Assembly (NCBI GenBank): GCA_007376385.1
Contig: VMGC01000001.1
Span: forward strand, 288,001 to 352,000
Reading direction: 5' to 3'
Origin: Parcubacteria group bacterium Gr01-1014_8
GTDB taxonomy: Bacteria > Patescibacteriota > Minisyncoccia > Phycocordibacterales > UBA2100
DNA length: 64,000 nucleotides
Shown here: piece by piece, positions 44,615-55,500 of the stretch
How positions within the stretch are numbered: the first letter of the stretch is position 1
Layout: each line of letters starts with the position of its first letter
Notes under the pieces: generated by a model
What the model saw: only the letters and a program-made list of their open reading frames with translations
Told to the model about the DNA's origin: nothing
The model's database searches: none
Program-made: the position numbers and the translations under genes

Positions 44615-44718
44615 ACAAAGATAGAAAGATGATATAATTGCGCGGTGAGTGCCATTGCCTGTCTGCGTGCAGTACGCACAGGCAGAAAAGATGGCGTCTC
44701 TCTAGAAAGTCGCGTAGA

Positions 44719-45400: not shown

Positions 45401-45454
45401 ATGGCAAAGAAAAAGAAAGCAAAGAAAAAGGCAAAGCGATCGAAGAGACGCTAG
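45401..45454 (+). other. 17-codon poly-lysine micro-ORF (MAKKKKAKKKAKRSKRR*), about 100 nt upstream of secA
   Basis: ATG GCA AAG AAA AAG AAA GCA AAG AAA AAG GCA AAG CGA TCG AAG AGA CGC TAG read directly. No evidence of expression. Confidence 0.2.
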
Positions 45455-45556
45455 TCAGGCGTGCTTCGAAAGAAAAGACCCTCCATTGCGGAGGGTCTTT
45501 TCGTGCGCGACCAGAGACTGCGAAAATCAGTCATTAGTGTTAGGATGTGCCTCTGT

Positions 45557-48160: not shown

Positions 48161-48281
48161 CGAGCGACACAGACAGCAAAGGTTCAAAGCCCCGCGGCTT
48201 GCCTGCCTGTGCGATGCACGCAGACAGGCCGCGGAATTTGGGACCGAGGAACCTTTATATTCCGTAAGAAAATAGTGTATG

Positions 48282-48387: not shown

Positions 48388-49833
48388 ATGTCATACAAGG
48401 CAACGATAGGGCTTGAAATTCATGCAGAATTGAAGACAAGTACAAAAATGTTTTGCTCGTCTCAGAACAACGCCGACGAAACAAGAGCGAATGTCCACGT
48501 CTGCCCCATTTGTTTGGCGCATCCGGGTACGCTGCCTGTCATCAATAGGGAAGCGGTGCGGCAGGTGCTCCGCGTCGGGGTTGCGCTTAAAGGTACGTTG
48601 GCAGATTACACGGAATTTGACCGCAAGAATTATTTTTATCCAGATCTGCCTAAGGGCTACCAATTATCACAGTATGAATTTCCCCTTGTGTCAGGCGGAA
48701 GTTTAAATGGAGTAGACATCACGCGAGTTCACTTAGAAGAGGACACAGCGAGTTCAATTCATGACGAGATGACAGGGGAAACCCTTATTGATTACAATCG
48801 CGCGGGGGTGCCTTTGATGGAACTCGTTACGGAGCCAGTGATCCATAGCGCAAAGGAAGCAGGTGATTTTGGCCGAGAATTACAATTGCTCTTACGTTAT
48901 CTAGGTGCATCAGACGCTGACATGGAAAAAGGGCGCATGCGACTTGAAGCAAATATTTCTGTCTCAAATTCCGACGAACTAGGCACGAAGGTCGAAATAA
49001 AGAATATTAACTCTTTCCGGGCTATGGAGCGCGCGGTTGAACACGAGATAGCTAGGCAGACAGATATCCTCGATATGGGGCAAAAAATAGCTCAAGAGAC
49101 TCGCGGATGGGATGACTCTAAACAAGCGACGTTCAGCCAGCGTGTGAAGGAGGGTAGTGCGGATTATCGTTACTTTCCAGATCCAGATCTGCCGAGCCTC
49201 AAACTTTCGCAGATCGAGGAATTCTCAGAAGATGCGCTTAAAAAGACCCTTCCCGAGTTGCCCAGTGAGAGACGCCAGCGGTATATACATGCAGGCATTA
49301 AAGCTGCGGATGCTGAGCAATTTGCTGCATACCCACGCCTGGCAGACTTTATGGACAAAGTGATAGTTGGGAACATCAAGGATGAGGCATTTATACAACG
49401 TGCGACTAACTACATAGTGAACGACCTCGTGAGCATTATCCGAGACATCAATAAACGAGATACGGATTTGCGAGGCGAGATACCTATCTCCTCTATGAAC
49501 TTTACAAAGATTATGCGTATGCTCGGTGATAGAAGGATCTCGTCGAGGGGTGCGAAGGACCTGCTATCCTTGGTCATAAAGGAAGGCCGCGATCCGGAAA
49601 CGGTTGCGTCGGAGCGCGGTCTTCTTATAGATGCGGCCGGACTGGACGTCGAATCTGCGGTTCACAATGTTCTCACAAGGAATAAAGAAGTAGTTGCGGA
49701 CTATTTGTCCGGGAAGCAGAATGCGCTTCAATATTTGATCGGACAATGCATGAAAGAGCTCAAAGGTGCAGTTGAACCGACGGAGCTAAGAGTGATATTG
49801 ATGCAAACAATCTCATCTCGTAGCGCTACTTAA
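48388..49833 (+). CDS. gatB: aspartyl/glutamyl-tRNA(Asn/Gln) amidotransferase subunit B
   Basis: 481 aa. MSYKATIGLEIHAELKTSTKMFC...CPICLAHPGTLPV and the C-terminal YqeY-like tail have the canonical GatB signature. Confidence 0.9.
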   Translation: MSYKATIGLEIHAELKTSTKMFCSSQNNADETRANVHVCPICLAHPGTLPVINREAVRQVLRVGVALKGTLADYTEFDRKNYFYPDLPKGYQLSQYEFPLVSGGSLNGVDITRVHLEEDTASSIHDEMTGETLIDYNRAGVPLMELVTEPVIHSAKEAGDFGRELQLLLRYLGASDADMEKGRMRLEANISVSNSDELGTKVEIKNINSFRAMERAVEHEIARQTDILDMGQKIAQETRGWDDSKQATFSQRVKEGSADYRYFPDPDLPSLKLSQIEEFSEDALKKTLPELPSERRQRYIHAGIKAADAEQFAAYPRLADFMDKVIVGNIKDEAFIQRATNYIVNDLVSIIRDINKRDTDLRGEIPISSMNFTKIMRMLGDRRISSRGAKDLLSLVIKEGRDPETVASERGLLIDAAGLDVESAVHNVLTRNKEVVADYLSGKQNALQYLIGQCMKELKGAVEPTELRVILMQTISSRSAT

Positions 49834-50404
49834 CTTCTTATAGCTCGTTGACCGTCCGTGCTGTTGTTGCACCAATGTTTGTTTGTGTATGTATCTTCCC
49901 AACGCTGAATAAATGAATTGCCTTGATTCGTGCAACTAAGTTAGCGGCTTCTCGAACCTTGGCCGACATGAAAGACATAAGAGATAATGTGGGCCCACAC
50001 AATTCCATCACTTCACCACGCAGAAATATTCACTCTCCGTGTTTATATGTACTTATGGGGGTACATGTTGAATTGTTGGCCATGCACGAATACGGCAATA
50101 CACTTATAGCTCGCATAATTGCACTGGGGGCTTACTTAATAATATTCATGTGTAAGTCTCGTTTATCTCTGAGTTTTTCTGACGTGTTACTCGAAGCTTA
50201 AATGAATTCGGCAGGGACGTCTTTGATGCGTATTTATTCGGGCCTGGTCCATGTGCATATACGTTCTTGAAAGTCATGAAAAAGGCTGCAAAATTTACTG
50301 AAATCCTGTCATTTTGGTCGAAAATACAGCCATTTTTGACTTTTTTGACTAATTATTGCGACCCAAGGCGGGGGGAAACAGCGCTAACATAGCAAGGTCG
50401 GCGG

Positions 50405-51130
50405 TTGTCCACGCAAGGTCGGACCTTGCTTATATCTGCGTATTATACTGATTTGGTGGCAAAACGACGAAAAGTCGCCTATATAGCACCCTTTGATAGT
50501 GATAAGTACTATCACGTGCATAACGACGGAATTGATAGGCGAATACTATTCAGCTCCAAGCAGGATTTTGACCGCTTTGAAGCATATTTGTATCTGCTGA
50601 ATTCCACTGAAAGCCCGCGTGCGGCTAATTTTTTTACAGGCAATCGCCAGAACGAAATATTTCAAACGGGGAGAGGCGATAAATTAATAGCACTCGGAGC
50701 TTATTCGATCACGCCGCATGAATTTCACTTGCTTGCTGTGCCTCTGGTCGATGGGGGGATGGGGAAATTCATGCAGAAGCTTCAGACTGGATACACGATG
50801 TACTTCAATAGCAAGTACCAGCGTATGGGACGCATATTCCAGTCCTCATATAAGGCGGAATCAGCTCGATCAGCCGAGCATCTAAAATATATGTTCTGTT
50901 ATATTCATTTAAATCCTGCGCAGATCTTTGACAAAGAATGGGATTCGACAAACGAGAGGAGCGGACTTGCAACACACATATTGAGGGCAATGAATTATCG
51001 CTACTCGAGCGCAAATGAATATACCTCTCAAAAATTTATCATCACGACGCCGCATGAATTTCCGCCCTACATCAGAAGGGTGAGAGATGCGCGCGCGTAC
51101 TTGAAACTTTGGTCAAAGTTTAAAGAATAG
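50405..51130 (+). CDS. REP-associated/IS200-like Y1 (HuH) tyrosine transposase (PF01797-type, RayT-like); start codon uncertain
   Basis: Motifs YHVHNDGIDRRILF..., ...SITPHEFHLLAVP (HuH-like) and ...YFNSKYQRMGRIFQSSYKAES...YIHLNP (catalytic Tyr region) match the REP-tyrosine-transposase/IS200 pattern. The track uses a TTG start, and a perfect palindrome GCAAGGTC-G-GACCTTGC lies within the first about 25 nt, so the true start may be further downstream. No tnpB is present. Confidence 0.6.
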   Translation: MSTQGRTLLISAYYTDLVAKRRKVAYIAPFDSDKYYHVHNDGIDRRILFSSKQDFDRFEAYLYLLNSTESPRAANFFTGNRQNEIFQTGRGDKLIALGAYSITPHEFHLLAVPLVDGGMGKFMQKLQTGYTMYFNSKYQRMGRIFQSSYKAESARSAEHLKYMFCYIHLNPAQIFDKEWDSTNERSGLATHILRAMNYRYSSANEYTSQKFIITTPHEFPPYIRRVRDARAYLKLWSKFKE

Positions 51131-51320
51131 ACGCACATGCTCATAAAATCTATGCCGGAGTGAATCTGGTACAGTAGCGTCTTGACGTATTTAGAAAGCG
51201 TTGTGTAAGACTCTGTAGGTAAAGCCGGTCGCCTTCACGGCAGTAGACTCTGAGGATATCTCCACAGAGTACGCCAGATATGGAAGACAGTAGCCGTCAG
51301 GGCTAGTATAATCTCGGCAT

Positions 51321-52274
51321 ATGGCTCATGAGATAGTTCTCGGCGATACGACATACATTTCTTCAAAGCGCGCAGCCGAGATTACTGGATATGCCCAAGA
51401 TTATATTGGCCAACTCGCGCGTGCGGGGAAGATAATTGCACGAAGAATTGGAGGCCTTTGGTATGTTCTCGAAGAGTCTTTAAACAACTATAAGGCTGTG
51501 GCAGAACTTTATGTAGCGACTCCACCTCGGATGGATGATTCATACGCTTCTGCCTCTAAGGTTGCTGACACCCTTATTTCATTTGATGGAAAAGAGTATG
51601 TTTCAGCATCAGAAGCGGCTAGGCAGACTGCATATCACCAAGACTATATCGGGCAGCTAGCACGTACCGGCAGGATTTTGTCTAAGCAAGTCGGAGCGCG
51701 TTGGTTCGTCGAATTAAAAGGTCTAAGGGCTCACAAAGCCGAAAAAGATGCTCTCTTGGCTGCGGTGCAGCGTGAATCAGTGGGCCTTGTCCGCCCTGCA
51801 AAGAGCGGTCCCGATGCCGACAACTACAAGGTGCATTTCACATATACAGCTGATGAGAGGGAACTCCTGCCGTCTCTCCTTCGCAAAGATGCCTCAGGCA
51901 GCAATATTCAGCAGGATGCGGCCGAGTTAGAGCACGTAATACCGATTCGTATTGTGCGTGTTCCTCAAAATCCGGCAACAAGCAGCTATTCAGCTCGATC
52001 TGCTACTCGCTCCGTGCGGTTGCGAGTAAGAAAACCCTTATATTATGGTAGCTTATCCGCCGTGCTGGTGACTGTAGTGATTGTCATCGCATTTCATATA
52101 AATATACTAAACGCTGTCCCGATATTCGCGAATACCAACAAGTCGGGCGTTTTAAAAAACACGGCTCTTGCGGGAATAATTATGAACGTCGCAGCGGACT
52201 TTGCGGATCTCGCTCATGAATTGTTAGGGAATAAAGTCATTTACAATCGAGGTTCATACAAGCCCGATTTCTAG
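51321..52274 (+). CDS. membrane-anchored protein with two tandem HTH_17/excisionase-like motifs
   Basis: 317 aa. Two about 45-aa repeats (TYISSKRAAEITGYAQDYIGQLARAGKIIARRIGGLWYV / EYVSASEAARQTAYHQDYIGQLARTGRILSKQVGARWFV), each matching the EAAxxLGxSxxxIxRLxxxGxIxxxxIGxxWxV excisionase/MerR-like HTH pattern. A C-terminal TM helix (LSAVLVTVVIVIAFHINIL) follows. The same motif opens the downstream giant ORF. Confidence 0.5.
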   Translation: MAHEIVLGDTTYISSKRAAEITGYAQDYIGQLARAGKIIARRIGGLWYVLEESLNNYKAVAELYVATPPRMDDSYASASKVADTLISFDGKEYVSASEAARQTAYHQDYIGQLARTGRILSKQVGARWFVELKGLRAHKAEKDALLAAVQRESVGLVRPAKSGPDADNYKVHFTYTADERELLPSLLRKDASGSNIQQDAAELEHVIPIRIVRVPQNPATSSYSARSATRSVRLRVRKPLYYGSLSAVLVTVVIVIAFHINILNAVPIFANTNKSGVLKNTALAGIIMNVAADFADLAHELLGNKVIYNRGSYKPDF

Positions 52275-52597: not shown

Positions 52598-55500
52598 ATG
52601 TCTGATGAAATCTTTTTTGATGGTGTTCGATATATTTCGGCGCAGGAAGCTGCGACGTCGTTAGGTTTTTCGCGAGATTACATTGCGAGGCTTGCTCGAA
52701 TAGGCAAAGTCAAAGGCCGACAAATAGGAAAGAATTGGTACGTCGAATTTCGCTCAGTTCAAACGTTTGTCCTTGAGCAGGAGTACTTGCAGGGAAAGCG
52801 TAGAAAGGAGCTTGCGGAGAAGCGAGTCTTCGAATACCGCAAGCAGGTTGGCAGTACGGACGAGAGATCGAGCGATATTGTTGCCCCAGTTATTTTTGCC
52901 GATGCTGTATCAGTTTCTGCAAAGCAAAACAAGAGACATGCGGCTATTAAGGCGATGCTCGCGCGTGCAATGTCTCGCCGCGCCGACTTGAAGGTTCTGG
53001 CGCATGCGAACCGCGTTCATACGCCCTCGTTTTTTTCTGTGACGCCTGCCGTTGAGTTTCTGCACAAACTCACTGCTCTCATTACAGCGTTTGTACTGAC
53101 TTTTGGCGCGTATGCTTTTGTTAATGCGGACTACGCTCATTTTGCACTCGATTCTATACGCTCTGCTTCACGGAGTGTTGTTGCTGTCCCGAAATTGGTC
53201 TGGGGAGGTGATGCAGCACGTTGGGGTTCAGATACAGGTGCGCAACTCGCAGCTGTTGCATTGCAGACAGCTCAGTCGGCAAACCAAGCTGAATCATCCA
53301 TTACTTCATTCATGTCATCTGCCGCAAGAAATTTCAACCTTCACGTTAATGACTTATTGTACGGAGTTATTTATCCGAACATTCCTGGCATGGGTTCTTT
53401 CGCGTTCTCATCTGCGCGTGGCCGCGTCGATATTCAAATTGTTCCGTATCGCAGCGATGCGCCTGCAGCAAGATCGGCACCTGCTCCCTTGATCCGAACA
53501 GCAGTGTCAGCTCCAACAACTGTCATCAATCAACCGATAGTGGAACGCATCAGAGAGACGAAGAGCGTTGTCACGCTCGGCGGGATCAGTGAAGAGCTCC
53601 TAGCATCCAAGTTGCTTGAGCTCGACACCAAACTTTCTTCTCGCATGTTGTCGCTCACCTCTTCTAACGCAACGAGCATTACCCAGGTATATAACACCGT
53701 CGGCCAAATGGGTCGTATTGAACATTTAGATGATCTTGATCTTACAAACCCAACGATTACGAGAGGCACGTTGACGAACGTGAGGATCTCATCTCTTTCA
53801 GCCCCTCTCACAATCTCTGACGGCGGCACTGGAACCTCTAGCGCTCCTACGTATGGAAAAGTTCTCTTAGGAAATTCGAGCGGTGCGTATGATCTCGTCG
53901 CGACCTCATCGCTGGGTGTCGGCGGAACACCCGGCGGCTCGAGCACGCAGGTGCAATTTAACGATAGCGGTGCTTTCGGTGCGGATTCCACATTTACTTT
54001 CAACAGCACCAGCAATCTTCTTTCTTTCTCGAGCGCGTCATCTTCGTTGCAGTCTATTTTTGATCGCCTGTATGTCGGCGGAACGGCGACGACGACCATC
54101 TTCGGCTCCGCGACTTCCACCTTCGGGGCTGGTATCGAGACAACTGCCTTGAACGTTACTTCGAATAGCGCGAGCAGCACATTCGCAAACGGTATCTCGC
54201 TCTCTGCCGGGTGTTTCCGCGACGCGAGCGGGGCATGTCTGCAGAGCGCGACATTTGCGTATCTCTTCCCATCGGACGCAACCACAACCAAACTCACGTT
54301 CTCTGGCGGTTTGATCTCGCTCGCTTCAACGACGATCGGCAATGGCACACAAGCGGGAGGACTCACGATCTCCGGCGGCGCGACGACGACAGGGAATCTC
54401 TTGGTGCAGGGCAATGCGACGACGACAAACTTGGCAGTGTCTGGCACCGCATCGTCATCTGCCCTCGTCGCATCAAATTCATTTACGTTCTCGAATATAA
54501 CAGGCTTCCTCAAGGCGACCGCCGGCGTTGTCGCAACGGCCGCCATCAATCTCGCCTCCGACATCACCGGCATTCTTCCTGCTGGAAATGGCGGCACGGG
54601 ATGGGGCAATATCGCAGCGAACACGATCGTGCTTGGGAACGGCACGGGAGCTATCGCAACGACGAGCGCCGGCACCAACGGCCAGATGCTCGCGCTTGTT
54701 TCGGGAGTGCCGACGTGGACCGCGACGACCACATTCTCAGCCCCACTTGTATTTTTCGCAGGCAATGTCTCGATCGCAGCCTCGAATGGCAGCACAGACG
54801 GCTATCTCACTTCCGCTGACTGGACGCTCTTCAACAACAAAGTCTCTTCTTCTTCGCTCTCGACATTCACGGCAGCCTTCAAAGACTGGAACATTACGAC
54901 AAACACATTCGGCCAGTCCTCTCTCGCTCCAACAACAACGCAAAACATCGCAGTCACAGGCGTCGGCACATCCACATTCGCCGGAGGATTAGAAGCGTGG
55001 AGACAAATAGGCGCTCCATACTTCAACGCTACAAGTTCATCCGCAACGTCAACCTTCGCTGGTGGATTAAATGTGCTCGCCATTAACCAAACTGGTTCTG
55101 CGACATCGACGTTTGCGAATGGTTTGCAGCTTTCGAATGGTTGTATCCGATTACCCTCAGGGAGCTGCTTGGCATCTGTCGCAAATTCTTCGATTGATGA
55201 TCTTAGCGACGTCACTATCACCGCCGCCGCATACGGCGACCTTTTGATGCACAACGGGACTGCATGGGTTGATACTGCCACTAGTTCGCTTGGAATATTC
55301 ATTTCAGACACCGTTGGGACACTTGCCGTGGGGAGAGGAGGCACGGGGCTATCATCGACACCAACGTACGGCCAACTGCTCGTCGGAAATGCTTCGAGCG
55401 GCTACACGCTTTCCGCGACATCAACGCTCGGCATCGCGCTCTCTGACACCATAGGAACGCTGGCGGCGACACGGGGTGGTACAGGACTCTCATCCATCAC

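Follow-up and report, generated by a model that had tools for sequence, protein, structure and literature searches.

TnpA-REP, also called RayT (YafM), and the REPtron of Escherichia coli, reportedly described in 2012 by Ton-Hoang and by Messing, form the described system closest to the one considered here. REP-associated tyrosine transposases (RAYTs; REP, repetitive extragenic palindrome) are treated as domesticated transposases that copy REPINs, or inverted REP doublets (PMC6006769; bioRxiv 10.1101/2021.07.10.451892). The class-2 (TnpA-REP) signature is Y-x-x-x-N-P, with the Asn supplying the third ligand of the metal (Quentin et al. 2018, PMC6006769). The same survey of class 2 TnpA-Y1 proteins found the genes enriched in large genomes, makes no mention of Patescibacteria, and set aside sequences without HuH (His-hydrophobic-His) or Tyr as probably non-functional (PMC6006769). 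In Neisseria gonorrhoeae, the RAYT is frameshifted, and loss of the RAYT was followed by REPIN decay (Bertels & Rainey, bioRxiv 10.1101/2021.07.10.451892). We found no literature connecting RAYTs or REPINs with Patescibacteria. Here we analysed a 64-kb stretch of contig VMGC01000001.1 from Parcubacteria group bacterium Gr01-1014_8 (hereafter the window), which carries a RAYT-like gene with a hairpin doublet immediately upstream. Its fold and family place the product in a domesticated, vertically inherited RAYT/TnpA-REP (class 2 TnpA-Y1) lineage. The reading that we favour, at about an even chance, is that the gene is a retired RAYT, selected and vertically inherited within a clade whose function no longer needs HUH/Tyr chemistry, and that its product still binds the hairpin.

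The identity of the protein is established by structure comparison and by its family. An AlphaFold model based on a 30-sequence alignment (predicted local distance difference test 86.5, predicted template modelling score 0.81) matches Y1 transposases, and Foldseek agrees with this fold, its matches including 2f4f and 2ec2. By this comparison, the window protein possesses the HUH-nuclease/Y1 transposase fold of the TnpA-Y1 superfamily. Searches of PDB chain sequences with the protein and with the 30-sequence profile returned no transposase match; the link to TnpA/RayT is thus seen by fold comparison and not by PDB sequence search. An initial annotation of the locus, made from the DNA letters, had named PF01797 (Y1_Tnp) as a check. 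The window protein itself scores 18 bits (E = 0.003), below the gathering cut-off of 23; of the 30 aligned family members, 21 match at E <= 0.01 (best 6e-9). The NCBIfam model NF047646 (REP_Tyr_transpos) gives 21.7 bits against an equivalog cut-off of 80. The Tyr motif Y150-I-H-L-N154-P155 conforms to the class-2 signature. The RayT-like assignment made in the initial annotation is therefore borne out by fold, signature and family, and the peptide motifs that it quoted are found in the protein. Across 30 sequences at 38–61% identity, 26 columns are invariant, and the motifs RFEAYLYLLN, KFMQKLQTAYTMYFN and YRYSS..E are invariant in both the catalytically intact and the degenerate groups.

The homology search returned 810 proteins at 40–62% identity. 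All homologues with an organism name in any source belong to Parcubacteria or Patescibacteria, and most homologue clusters were seen on one contig only. A scan of one genome per species detected a relative in at least 309 species, and 80 loci were kept, from 78 assemblies that are all metagenome-assembled genomes (MAGs) of Patescibacteria; a metagenome scan contributed 80 further loci. To judge from these sequences, the family has so far been seen only in Patescibacteria. The gene is present at about one copy per genome (80 loci in 78 assemblies), and together with shared synteny this identifies it as a single-copy, chromosomal and vertically inherited gene.

The catalytic centre has drifted across a whole clade. 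The HUH position reads P-H-E-F-H in the window protein and P-N-H-F-H in catalytically intact relatives, so that Glu stands in place of the first His and the His-hydrophobic-His metal-binding motif is lost (E89-F90-H91). This motif had been described as a slightly atypical HuH. The substitution is real, but it is no quirk of one protein: throughout a clade, all four catalytic residues are drifting, with the remainder of the protein conserved. In an alignment of 197 family members used for a catalytic-residue census, 103 retain all four residues and 94 lack at least one, and these 94 degenerate sequences cluster in a neighbour-joining tree. Their first His position is occupied by Glu in 31, His in 22 and Arg in 12. 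The second His is retained in 59 of the 94, Asn/Gln in 21 and Tyr in 19, the Tyr being otherwise replaced by Leu, Phe, Arg, Ser, Ala or other residues, and all four catalytic residues are gone in 28. The window protein is of the '-HYN' type (E89-F-H91, Y150, N154), and the tree places it closest to proteins of the '--YN' and '-H-N' types.

The proteins of the degenerate clade are under strong purifying selection. In pairs that include the window gene, the proportion of nonsynonymous differences (pN) is 0.27–0.50 against 0.75–0.95 for synonymous differences (pS), which are saturated; dS is therefore not usable, and no numeric dN/dS (ratio of nonsynonymous to synonymous substitution rates) is given for the window copy. 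The dN/dS is 0.037 for the Tyr-less pair L091/L092 and 0.08 for the pair L122/L015, in which the first HUH His is gone and the Tyr is kept. Although they are without Tyr or the second His, the closest relatives of the window protein are conserved, which indicates that the function of the clade does not need catalysis.

The start codon determines how the hairpin next to the gene is to be understood. The GenBank product P0001 ('MAG: transposase [Parcubacteria group bacterium Gr01-1014_8]') is identical to the window protein and has 224 aa, corresponding to a start at GTG 50456, and in nine orthologous loci an ATG or GTG lies exactly 6 nt after a TATACT box. On these two grounds the start is GTG 50456. 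The longer open reading frame (ORF) with a TTG start that had been listed (50405–51130, + strand, 241 aa) does exist; its TTG is not the true start, and the suspicion voiced at the time, that a later start was more likely, was correct. It follows that the palindrome, which had been placed within the first codons, is upstream DNA. The elements of the locus are as follows.

50456–51130, + strand: RAYT-like coding sequence of the Y1/HUH fold, 224 aa, GTG start, TAG stop.
50720–50728, + strand: codons of the degenerate HUH motif E89-F90-H91 (H-F-H in relatives), with H88 one codon upstream; from family alignments.
50903–50920, + strand: intact catalytic-Tyr motif Y150-I-H-L-N154-P155, class 2 Y-x-x-x-N-P; from alignment and PMC6006769.
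50412–50430, no strand: intact REP-like hairpin, the right unit of the doublet, CGCAAGGTCGGACCTTGCT, with an AGG-N5-CCT apex; the same element lies upstream of orthologues.
50391–50406, no strand: decayed left unit AGCAAGGTCGGCGGTT (AGCAAGGTYSRACCTT in orthologues), the inverted partner of the right unit; from orthologue comparison and DNA folding.
50407–50411, no strand: short asymmetric spacer between the units, GTCCA, within the TGTCCACG centre (ATCC(A/C)CA or its reverse complement in orthologues).
50444–50449, + strand: TATACT -10 box, 13 nt past CCTTGCT and 6 nt before the GTG, a spacing kept in orthologues.
49834–50390, no strand: non-conserved, non-coding spacer from gatB to the hairpin/promoter module; from comparison with syntenic relatives.

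The palindrome GCAAGGTC-G-GACCTTGC (GCAAGGTCGGACCTTGC) is present at 50413–50429, as the initial annotation had observed, and consists of two perfect 8-bp arms. Because of its central G it is not strictly perfect, and the reverse strand matches with 1 mismatch. GCAAGGTCGGACCTTGC is unique in the window, where 0.14 matches at <=3 mismatches would be expected by chance. The half-copy AGCAAGGTCGG reported just upstream is located at 50391–50401, ahead of the true start. The right unit is the sole AGG-N5-CCT hairpin in the 64 kb (0.07 expected), and the proposal of a REP-like guide hairpin is supported as far as its REP-like nature is concerned. The left unit has decayed, reading AGCAAGGTCGGCGGTT where orthologues read ...GGACCTT. 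When the doublet is folded as single-stranded DNA, its outer arms (50391–50399 and 50422–50430) pair at -10.2 kcal/mol (z = -3.55). Further copies of the hairpin unit (AGCAAGGTYSRACCTTGCT) do not occur in the window beyond chance, even at 4–5 mismatches. The loosest scan for decayed units yielded a single 4-mismatch match at 53467–53485, within chance, and a search for a repeated hairpin family in the window gave 15 perfect hairpins, all different. The window gene has no 3' or internal hairpin copy. It thus differs from a REPtron, with cognate hairpins on both sides, in having a 5' doublet only, of one intact and one decayed unit.

The doublet forms part of a conserved upstream module. In nine orthologous loci of about 50% protein identity, this module comprises TAGCAAGGTYSRACCTT, a centre reading ATCC(A/C)CA or its reverse complement, AAGGTYSRACCTTGCT, 13 nt (once 12), TATACT, 6 nt and ATG/GTG. 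The window, L081, L082, L083/L001, L084, L085, L087, L090 and L094/L095 agree in both spacings, N13 (N12 in one case) and N6. Among the orthologues, the centre is found in either orientation, which a REPIN-like inverted doublet would lead one to expect. The distance of 6 nt between the -10 box and the start codon implies a leaderless mRNA, and we predict from this spacing where a leaderless transcript from the TATACT promoter would begin. A search for a canonical -35 box found none; TTGCTT lies just 12 nt from the -10 box, and the right hairpin unit occupies the -35 zone. For want of a -35 match, a consensus promoter scan did not call the TATACT promoter. At the hairpin foot, where a GT[AG]G guide tetranucleotide is a feature of RAYT systems, some units begin with (G)TAGC, those of L047 and L007 among them, and the window's left unit with ATAGC; the part that is consistently conserved is the apex. 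Downstream, the neighbouring HTH_17 gene has a promoter match of its own, AAGACA-17-TATAAT (10/12) at 51284–51323, in which TATAAT ends 8 nt before ATG 51321. The organism may commonly produce transcripts with no leader or almost none.

Nearly all homologues have a hairpin immediately 5' of the gene. The hairpin has an AGG-N5-CCT apex, which often reads AAGGTTTAACCTT, GAGGCTAAACCTC or AAGGTCGAACCTT; the lower stem is lineage-specific but complementary, extending up to 25 bp. When pairing in the flanks was not required beforehand, Watson-Crick pairing at positions 1–6 beside the upstream AGG-N5-CCT cores amounted to 81, 77, 80, 67, 61 and 51%, against 25% by chance, with 60 different stem 4-mers among the covarying hairpins. 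The catalytically intact set was defined as the 136 loci that keep His-x-His, Tyr and Asn. A 5' hairpin is present at 106 of 132 of these loci, one directly past the stop codon at 94 of 134, and an in-frame copy inside the gene, at about +180 nt, at 38 of 136. A search covering 3–6 kb on either side of the gene found extra copies of a locus's own hairpin more than 300 nt away in 28 of 114 intact loci (40 copies, some of them adjacent inverted pairs), and a random-stem control gave 0. In the layout of their sequences, the intact relatives have the REPtron arrangement described for RAYTs. The hairpins at the two ends of the gene in relatives lie about 750 bp apart.

Among the degenerate loci, a 3' hairpin is present in none of the 20 testable cases and an internal one in none of 21. 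Strictly perfect 5' hairpins occur in 7 of 21, and the imperfect doublet with its promoter module can be recognised by eye in most. Three degenerate loci that are placed among the intact relatives (L015, L122 and L136) are likewise without a 3' hairpin. The absence of hairpins alongside catalytic decay agrees with the published rule by which loss of RAYT function brings REPIN decay (bioRxiv 10.1101/2021.07.10.451892).

Further observations concern the interior of the gene. In the 38 intact loci with an in-gene hairpin (L014, L016, L019, L020, L022, L029, L034, L039, L044, L046, L059, L062, L068, L073 and others), the copy is in frame, some +175 to +210 nt from the start codon, and precedes the HUH strand. 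The AGG codon of this copy is near the invariant Arg of the RxxN region, and part of this protein motif may be constrained at the DNA level. The window gene contains a 16-nt exact direct repeat, ACGCCGCATGAATTTC, at 50711–50726 and 51047–51062; both copies encode T-P-H-E-F, and one falls at the degenerate HUH motif. An inverted copy of 11–12 nt, GGAAATTCATGC, at 50763–50774 encodes the invariant G-K-F-M-Q. These repeats may have arisen by conversion over a short tract, or the conserved peptides may have forced a coincidence.

The position of the gene is conserved as well. It is preceded by gatB (48388–49833) and followed by a 317-aa gene with an HTH_17/excisionase-type domain (51321–52274). 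The order secA, gatB, spacer (620–830 nt), RAYT-like gene and HTH17 is common to the window, L002, L004 and L007; gatB and secA of the latter three are about 70% identical to those of the window, and their RAYT-like proteins about 50%. The 22 degenerate loci (window included) have a gatB-like neighbour in 16 cases and an HTH17-like neighbour in 19. Intact-residue relatives reside in more varied neighbourhoods, perhaps through mobility or simply deeper divergence. In L013, L030 and L033, which are among the more distant relatives, the RAYT-like gene is found between the same gatB and HTH_17 neighbours (48388–52274 in the window) on the opposite strand, which suggests an in-situ inversion of the hairpin-flanked gene. 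No tnpB-sized ORF exists between gatB and the HTH_17 gene, and with these neighbours the earlier view that the gene lacks tnpB and is not part of an IS200/IS605 element holds.

The initial annotation also pointed to a non-coding stretch of about 570 nt ahead of the ORF. The interval from the end of gatB is 571 nt to the TTG and 622 nt to the GTG, and its non-coding character is confirmed: Rfam has no family on 49700–51450 at E <= 1, nor any in the whole window at gathering score, and ORF-vs-ORF blastp finds no spacer ORF conserved in syntenic relatives. In comparisons of the window spacer (49834–50455) with relatives by blastn, tblastx and ORF-vs-ORF blastp, the shared part is the last ~65 nt, containing the hairpin and promoter. 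A low-GC spacer (0.40–0.46) of 0.6–0.8 kb is kept in the four syntenic genomes (window 49834–50390, L002 5243–6000, L004 5274–5890, L007 5257–5840). Its presence and rough length are maintained and its sequence and ORFs are not, which is odd for streamlined genomes.

These observations can be accommodated in the following scheme. In the ancestor, as in the intact relatives, the gene would be bracketed by cognate hairpins, which its product probably nicks and rejoins as single-stranded DNA, and this activity would keep a small REP-like population going. In the clade of the window gene, catalytic activity would have been given up or crippled, with no dispersed copies remaining, and one inverted, REPIN-like doublet would have been kept at a fixed spacing to the -10 box and the leaderless start. 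The protein may still recognise the hairpin, either as an extruded cruciform or as exposed single-stranded DNA. Through the doublet, it might control its own transcription, or the doublet might shield the gene against read-through from gatB. A DNA-binding host function, rather than strand transfer, would then be the role of the conserved non-catalytic surfaces (RFEAYLYLLN, KFMQKLQTAYTMYFN and YRYSS..E). Somewhat short of an even chance is what we give the broader proposition that Patescibacteria (Paceibacteria) have a REP/RAYT system of their own, with apex-conserved (AGG-N5-CCT) REPs and a large RAYT clade that, without its HUH/Tyr/Asn centre, has long been kept under purifying selection at a fixed site with one REPIN on a leaderless promoter, as a non-catalytic hairpin-binding protein.

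Several points weigh against a retired RAYT. The window copy keeps Tyr150, His91 and Asn154, and Glu can ligate Mg/Mn, so that Glu-x-His may preserve some activity. All four catalytic residues persist in two members of the clade. The link between decay and hairpin absence is phylogenetically non-independent, because it comes largely from one clade plus the scattered L015, L122 and L136. The copy search covers the 64-kb window, about 16% of the 407,897-bp contig, and a REP population may lie elsewhere. The doublet could instead serve RNA polymerase, a terminator (a scan flags it as terminator-like) or another protein. Finally, the promoter has no -35 element, the leaderless start is predicted from spacing alone, and leaderless mRNAs do not usually begin with GTG.

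The first of these points lead to the alternative of a still-active RAYT, for which Glu-x-His together with Tyr and Asn would suffice and whose REP/REPIN population would lie outside the window. Besides the three residues retained and the small share of the contig covered, the intact hairpin adjoining the gene and the dispersed copies around intact relatives would be in keeping with such activity. We nevertheless regard it as unlikely, since no further copies exist in the 64 kb beyond chance, the 3' and internal hairpins are missing, the left unit of the doublet has decayed, and the closest relatives have lost Tyr or the second His and remain conserved.

It is also rather unlikely that the palindrome is unrelated to the protein, being either an operator for another factor, such as the HTH_17 protein, or a terminator or insulator against gatB read-through. 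The left-end hairpin of IS200 blocks read-through, and here the scan flags 50413–50429 followed by TTATATCT as terminator-like; the U-tract is weak, however. HTH_17 genes are frequent neighbours, and the 13-bp AAGGTYSRACCTT palindrome would suit a dimeric binder of duplex DNA, but most intact relatives have no HTH_17 or gatB gene nearby. The hairpin instead tracks the RAYT-like gene across many contexts, occurring on both sides of it and inside it in intact relatives, and its stems covary up to 25 bp, far beyond what an operator needs.

A non-functional relic, in which a dying transposase gene drifts towards a pseudogene, would account for the degenerate HUH motif, the absent partner hairpins, the decayed left unit and the sub-threshold Pfam score. 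We consider it improbable: the ORF is uninterrupted and its length typical of the family, the 30 aligned sequences share 26 invariant columns, pN falls far short of pS, dN/dS is 0.04–0.08 in lineages missing at least one catalytic residue, and both position and promoter module are conserved across genomes. Least probable is a mobile IS200-type (tnpA-only) element or a part of an IS200/IS605 element, which a small single gene with a 5' hairpin, and relatives with hairpins ~750 bp apart at both ends, could resemble; the flanks are gatB and HTH_17 with no tnpB, the chromosomal position is the same in genomes with only ~50% protein identity, there is essentially one copy per genome, the two flanking hairpins of relatives belong to one family with solo copies, as in a REPtron, rather than being distinct left and right ends (LE/RE), and the signature is Y-x-x-x-N-P and not Y-x-x-x-Q. 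A TTAC-like target and LE/RE hairpins had been named in the initial annotation as things to look for; neither such a target nor distinct LE/RE ends were seen.

Elsewhere in the window, a bulged palindrome in two inverted copies, CTGCCTGTGCG..CACGCAGACAGG, flanks the secA region at 44657–44686 (- strand) and 48203–48230 (+ strand). These palindromes were considered as relatives of the RAYT hairpin and rejected, as they differ in sequence and number two copies. The suggested tie between REP maintenance and the secA palindromes therefore falls away, the palindromes being unrelated and the 64 kb holding no other copy of the hairpin. A hairpin with a 13-bp stem (GAAAAGACCCTCC..GGAGGGTCTTTTC, 45472–45502) lies within the listed GTG-started secA ORF; the true start of secA is therefore probably further downstream. 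Just before this hairpin is a tiny, very basic ORF, MAKKKKAKKKAKRSKRR (45402–45455). Beyond the RAYT-like locus, a very long ORF on the + strand with an HTH_17-like N-terminus (MSDEIFFDGVRYISAQEAATSLGFSRDYIARLARIGKVKGRQIGKNWYVE) begins at ATG 52599 and extends for more than 3,800 codons before it runs off the window end (64000), and the 421-aa ORF on the - strand at 53530–54795 is therefore probably spurious. GCAACGTCGG occurs 7 times at 58.6–63.7 kb within the long ORF. At about 54 kb the GC content begins to climb, to 0.55, and the skew becomes negative; considered as a possible sign of a replication origin or terminus, this turn coincides with the giant repeat-rich ORF.

The retired RAYT proposed here can be compared with four described cases. 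With IS200, the window gene shares the Y1/HUH fold (Foldseek matches 2f4f and 2ec2), its small single-gene format and a hairpin immediately upstream. IS200, in contrast, has the class 1 Tyr signature Y-x-x-x-Q, is mobile, multi-copy and often plasmid-borne, and carries LE/RE hairpins that differ; none of these applies to the window gene. The product should not be annotated as an active 'transposase', and its start should be set at GTG 50456.

The E. coli TnpA-REP/RayT protein (YafM; PDB 4ER8) resembles the window protein in its class-2 Y-x-x-x-N-P motif and in being encoded by a single-copy chromosomal gene with cognate hairpins. The likeness extends to the REPtron, as relatives of the window gene are flanked by one hairpin family with extra copies nearby. 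The two differ in that similarity is near the detection limit (21.7 vs 80 bits in NCBIfam; no PDB sequence match), the window protein is ~60 aa longer, and the consistently conserved part of the hairpin is the AGG-N5-CCT apex rather than a GT[AG]G foot. The window gene further differs in its Glu for the first HUH His, its 5'-only hairpins and the lack of a REP population in the 64 kb.

The class 2 TnpA-Y1 proteins of Quentin et al. 2018 are likewise domesticated Y1 proteins with extra C-terminal conserved regions bearing Ser motifs. Subclass 2.4, with a REP inside the gene, finds a parallel in the in-frame hairpin of 38/136 intact relatives, and the REP-less subclasses 2.1 and 2.3 show that some subclasses do without REPs. 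Unlike in that survey, the present family inhabits very small genomes, and the sequences without HuH/Y form a large conserved clade. The family thus puts a REP/RAYT-like system in the ultra-small genomes of Patescibacteria, counter to the large-genome trend (PMC6006769). RAYTs as a kind are known; new here is a RAYT family, so far seen in Patescibacteria only, whose REPs are conserved at the apex and which includes a derivative that has decayed catalytically and is linked to a promoter.

A clade that has lost catalytic residues and kept the protein, its location and one cognate doublet offers a natural case of separation of function. Should the protein do no more than bind, selection would be retaining binding rather than REP propagation, and the long-sought host benefit of RAYTs would be separable from DNA cleavage. 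The N. gonorrhoeae case is similar in that loss of RAYT function goes with disappearance of the repeats. There, the RAYT is a pseudogene, whereas here the ORF, its position and one promoter-linked doublet are under purifying selection.

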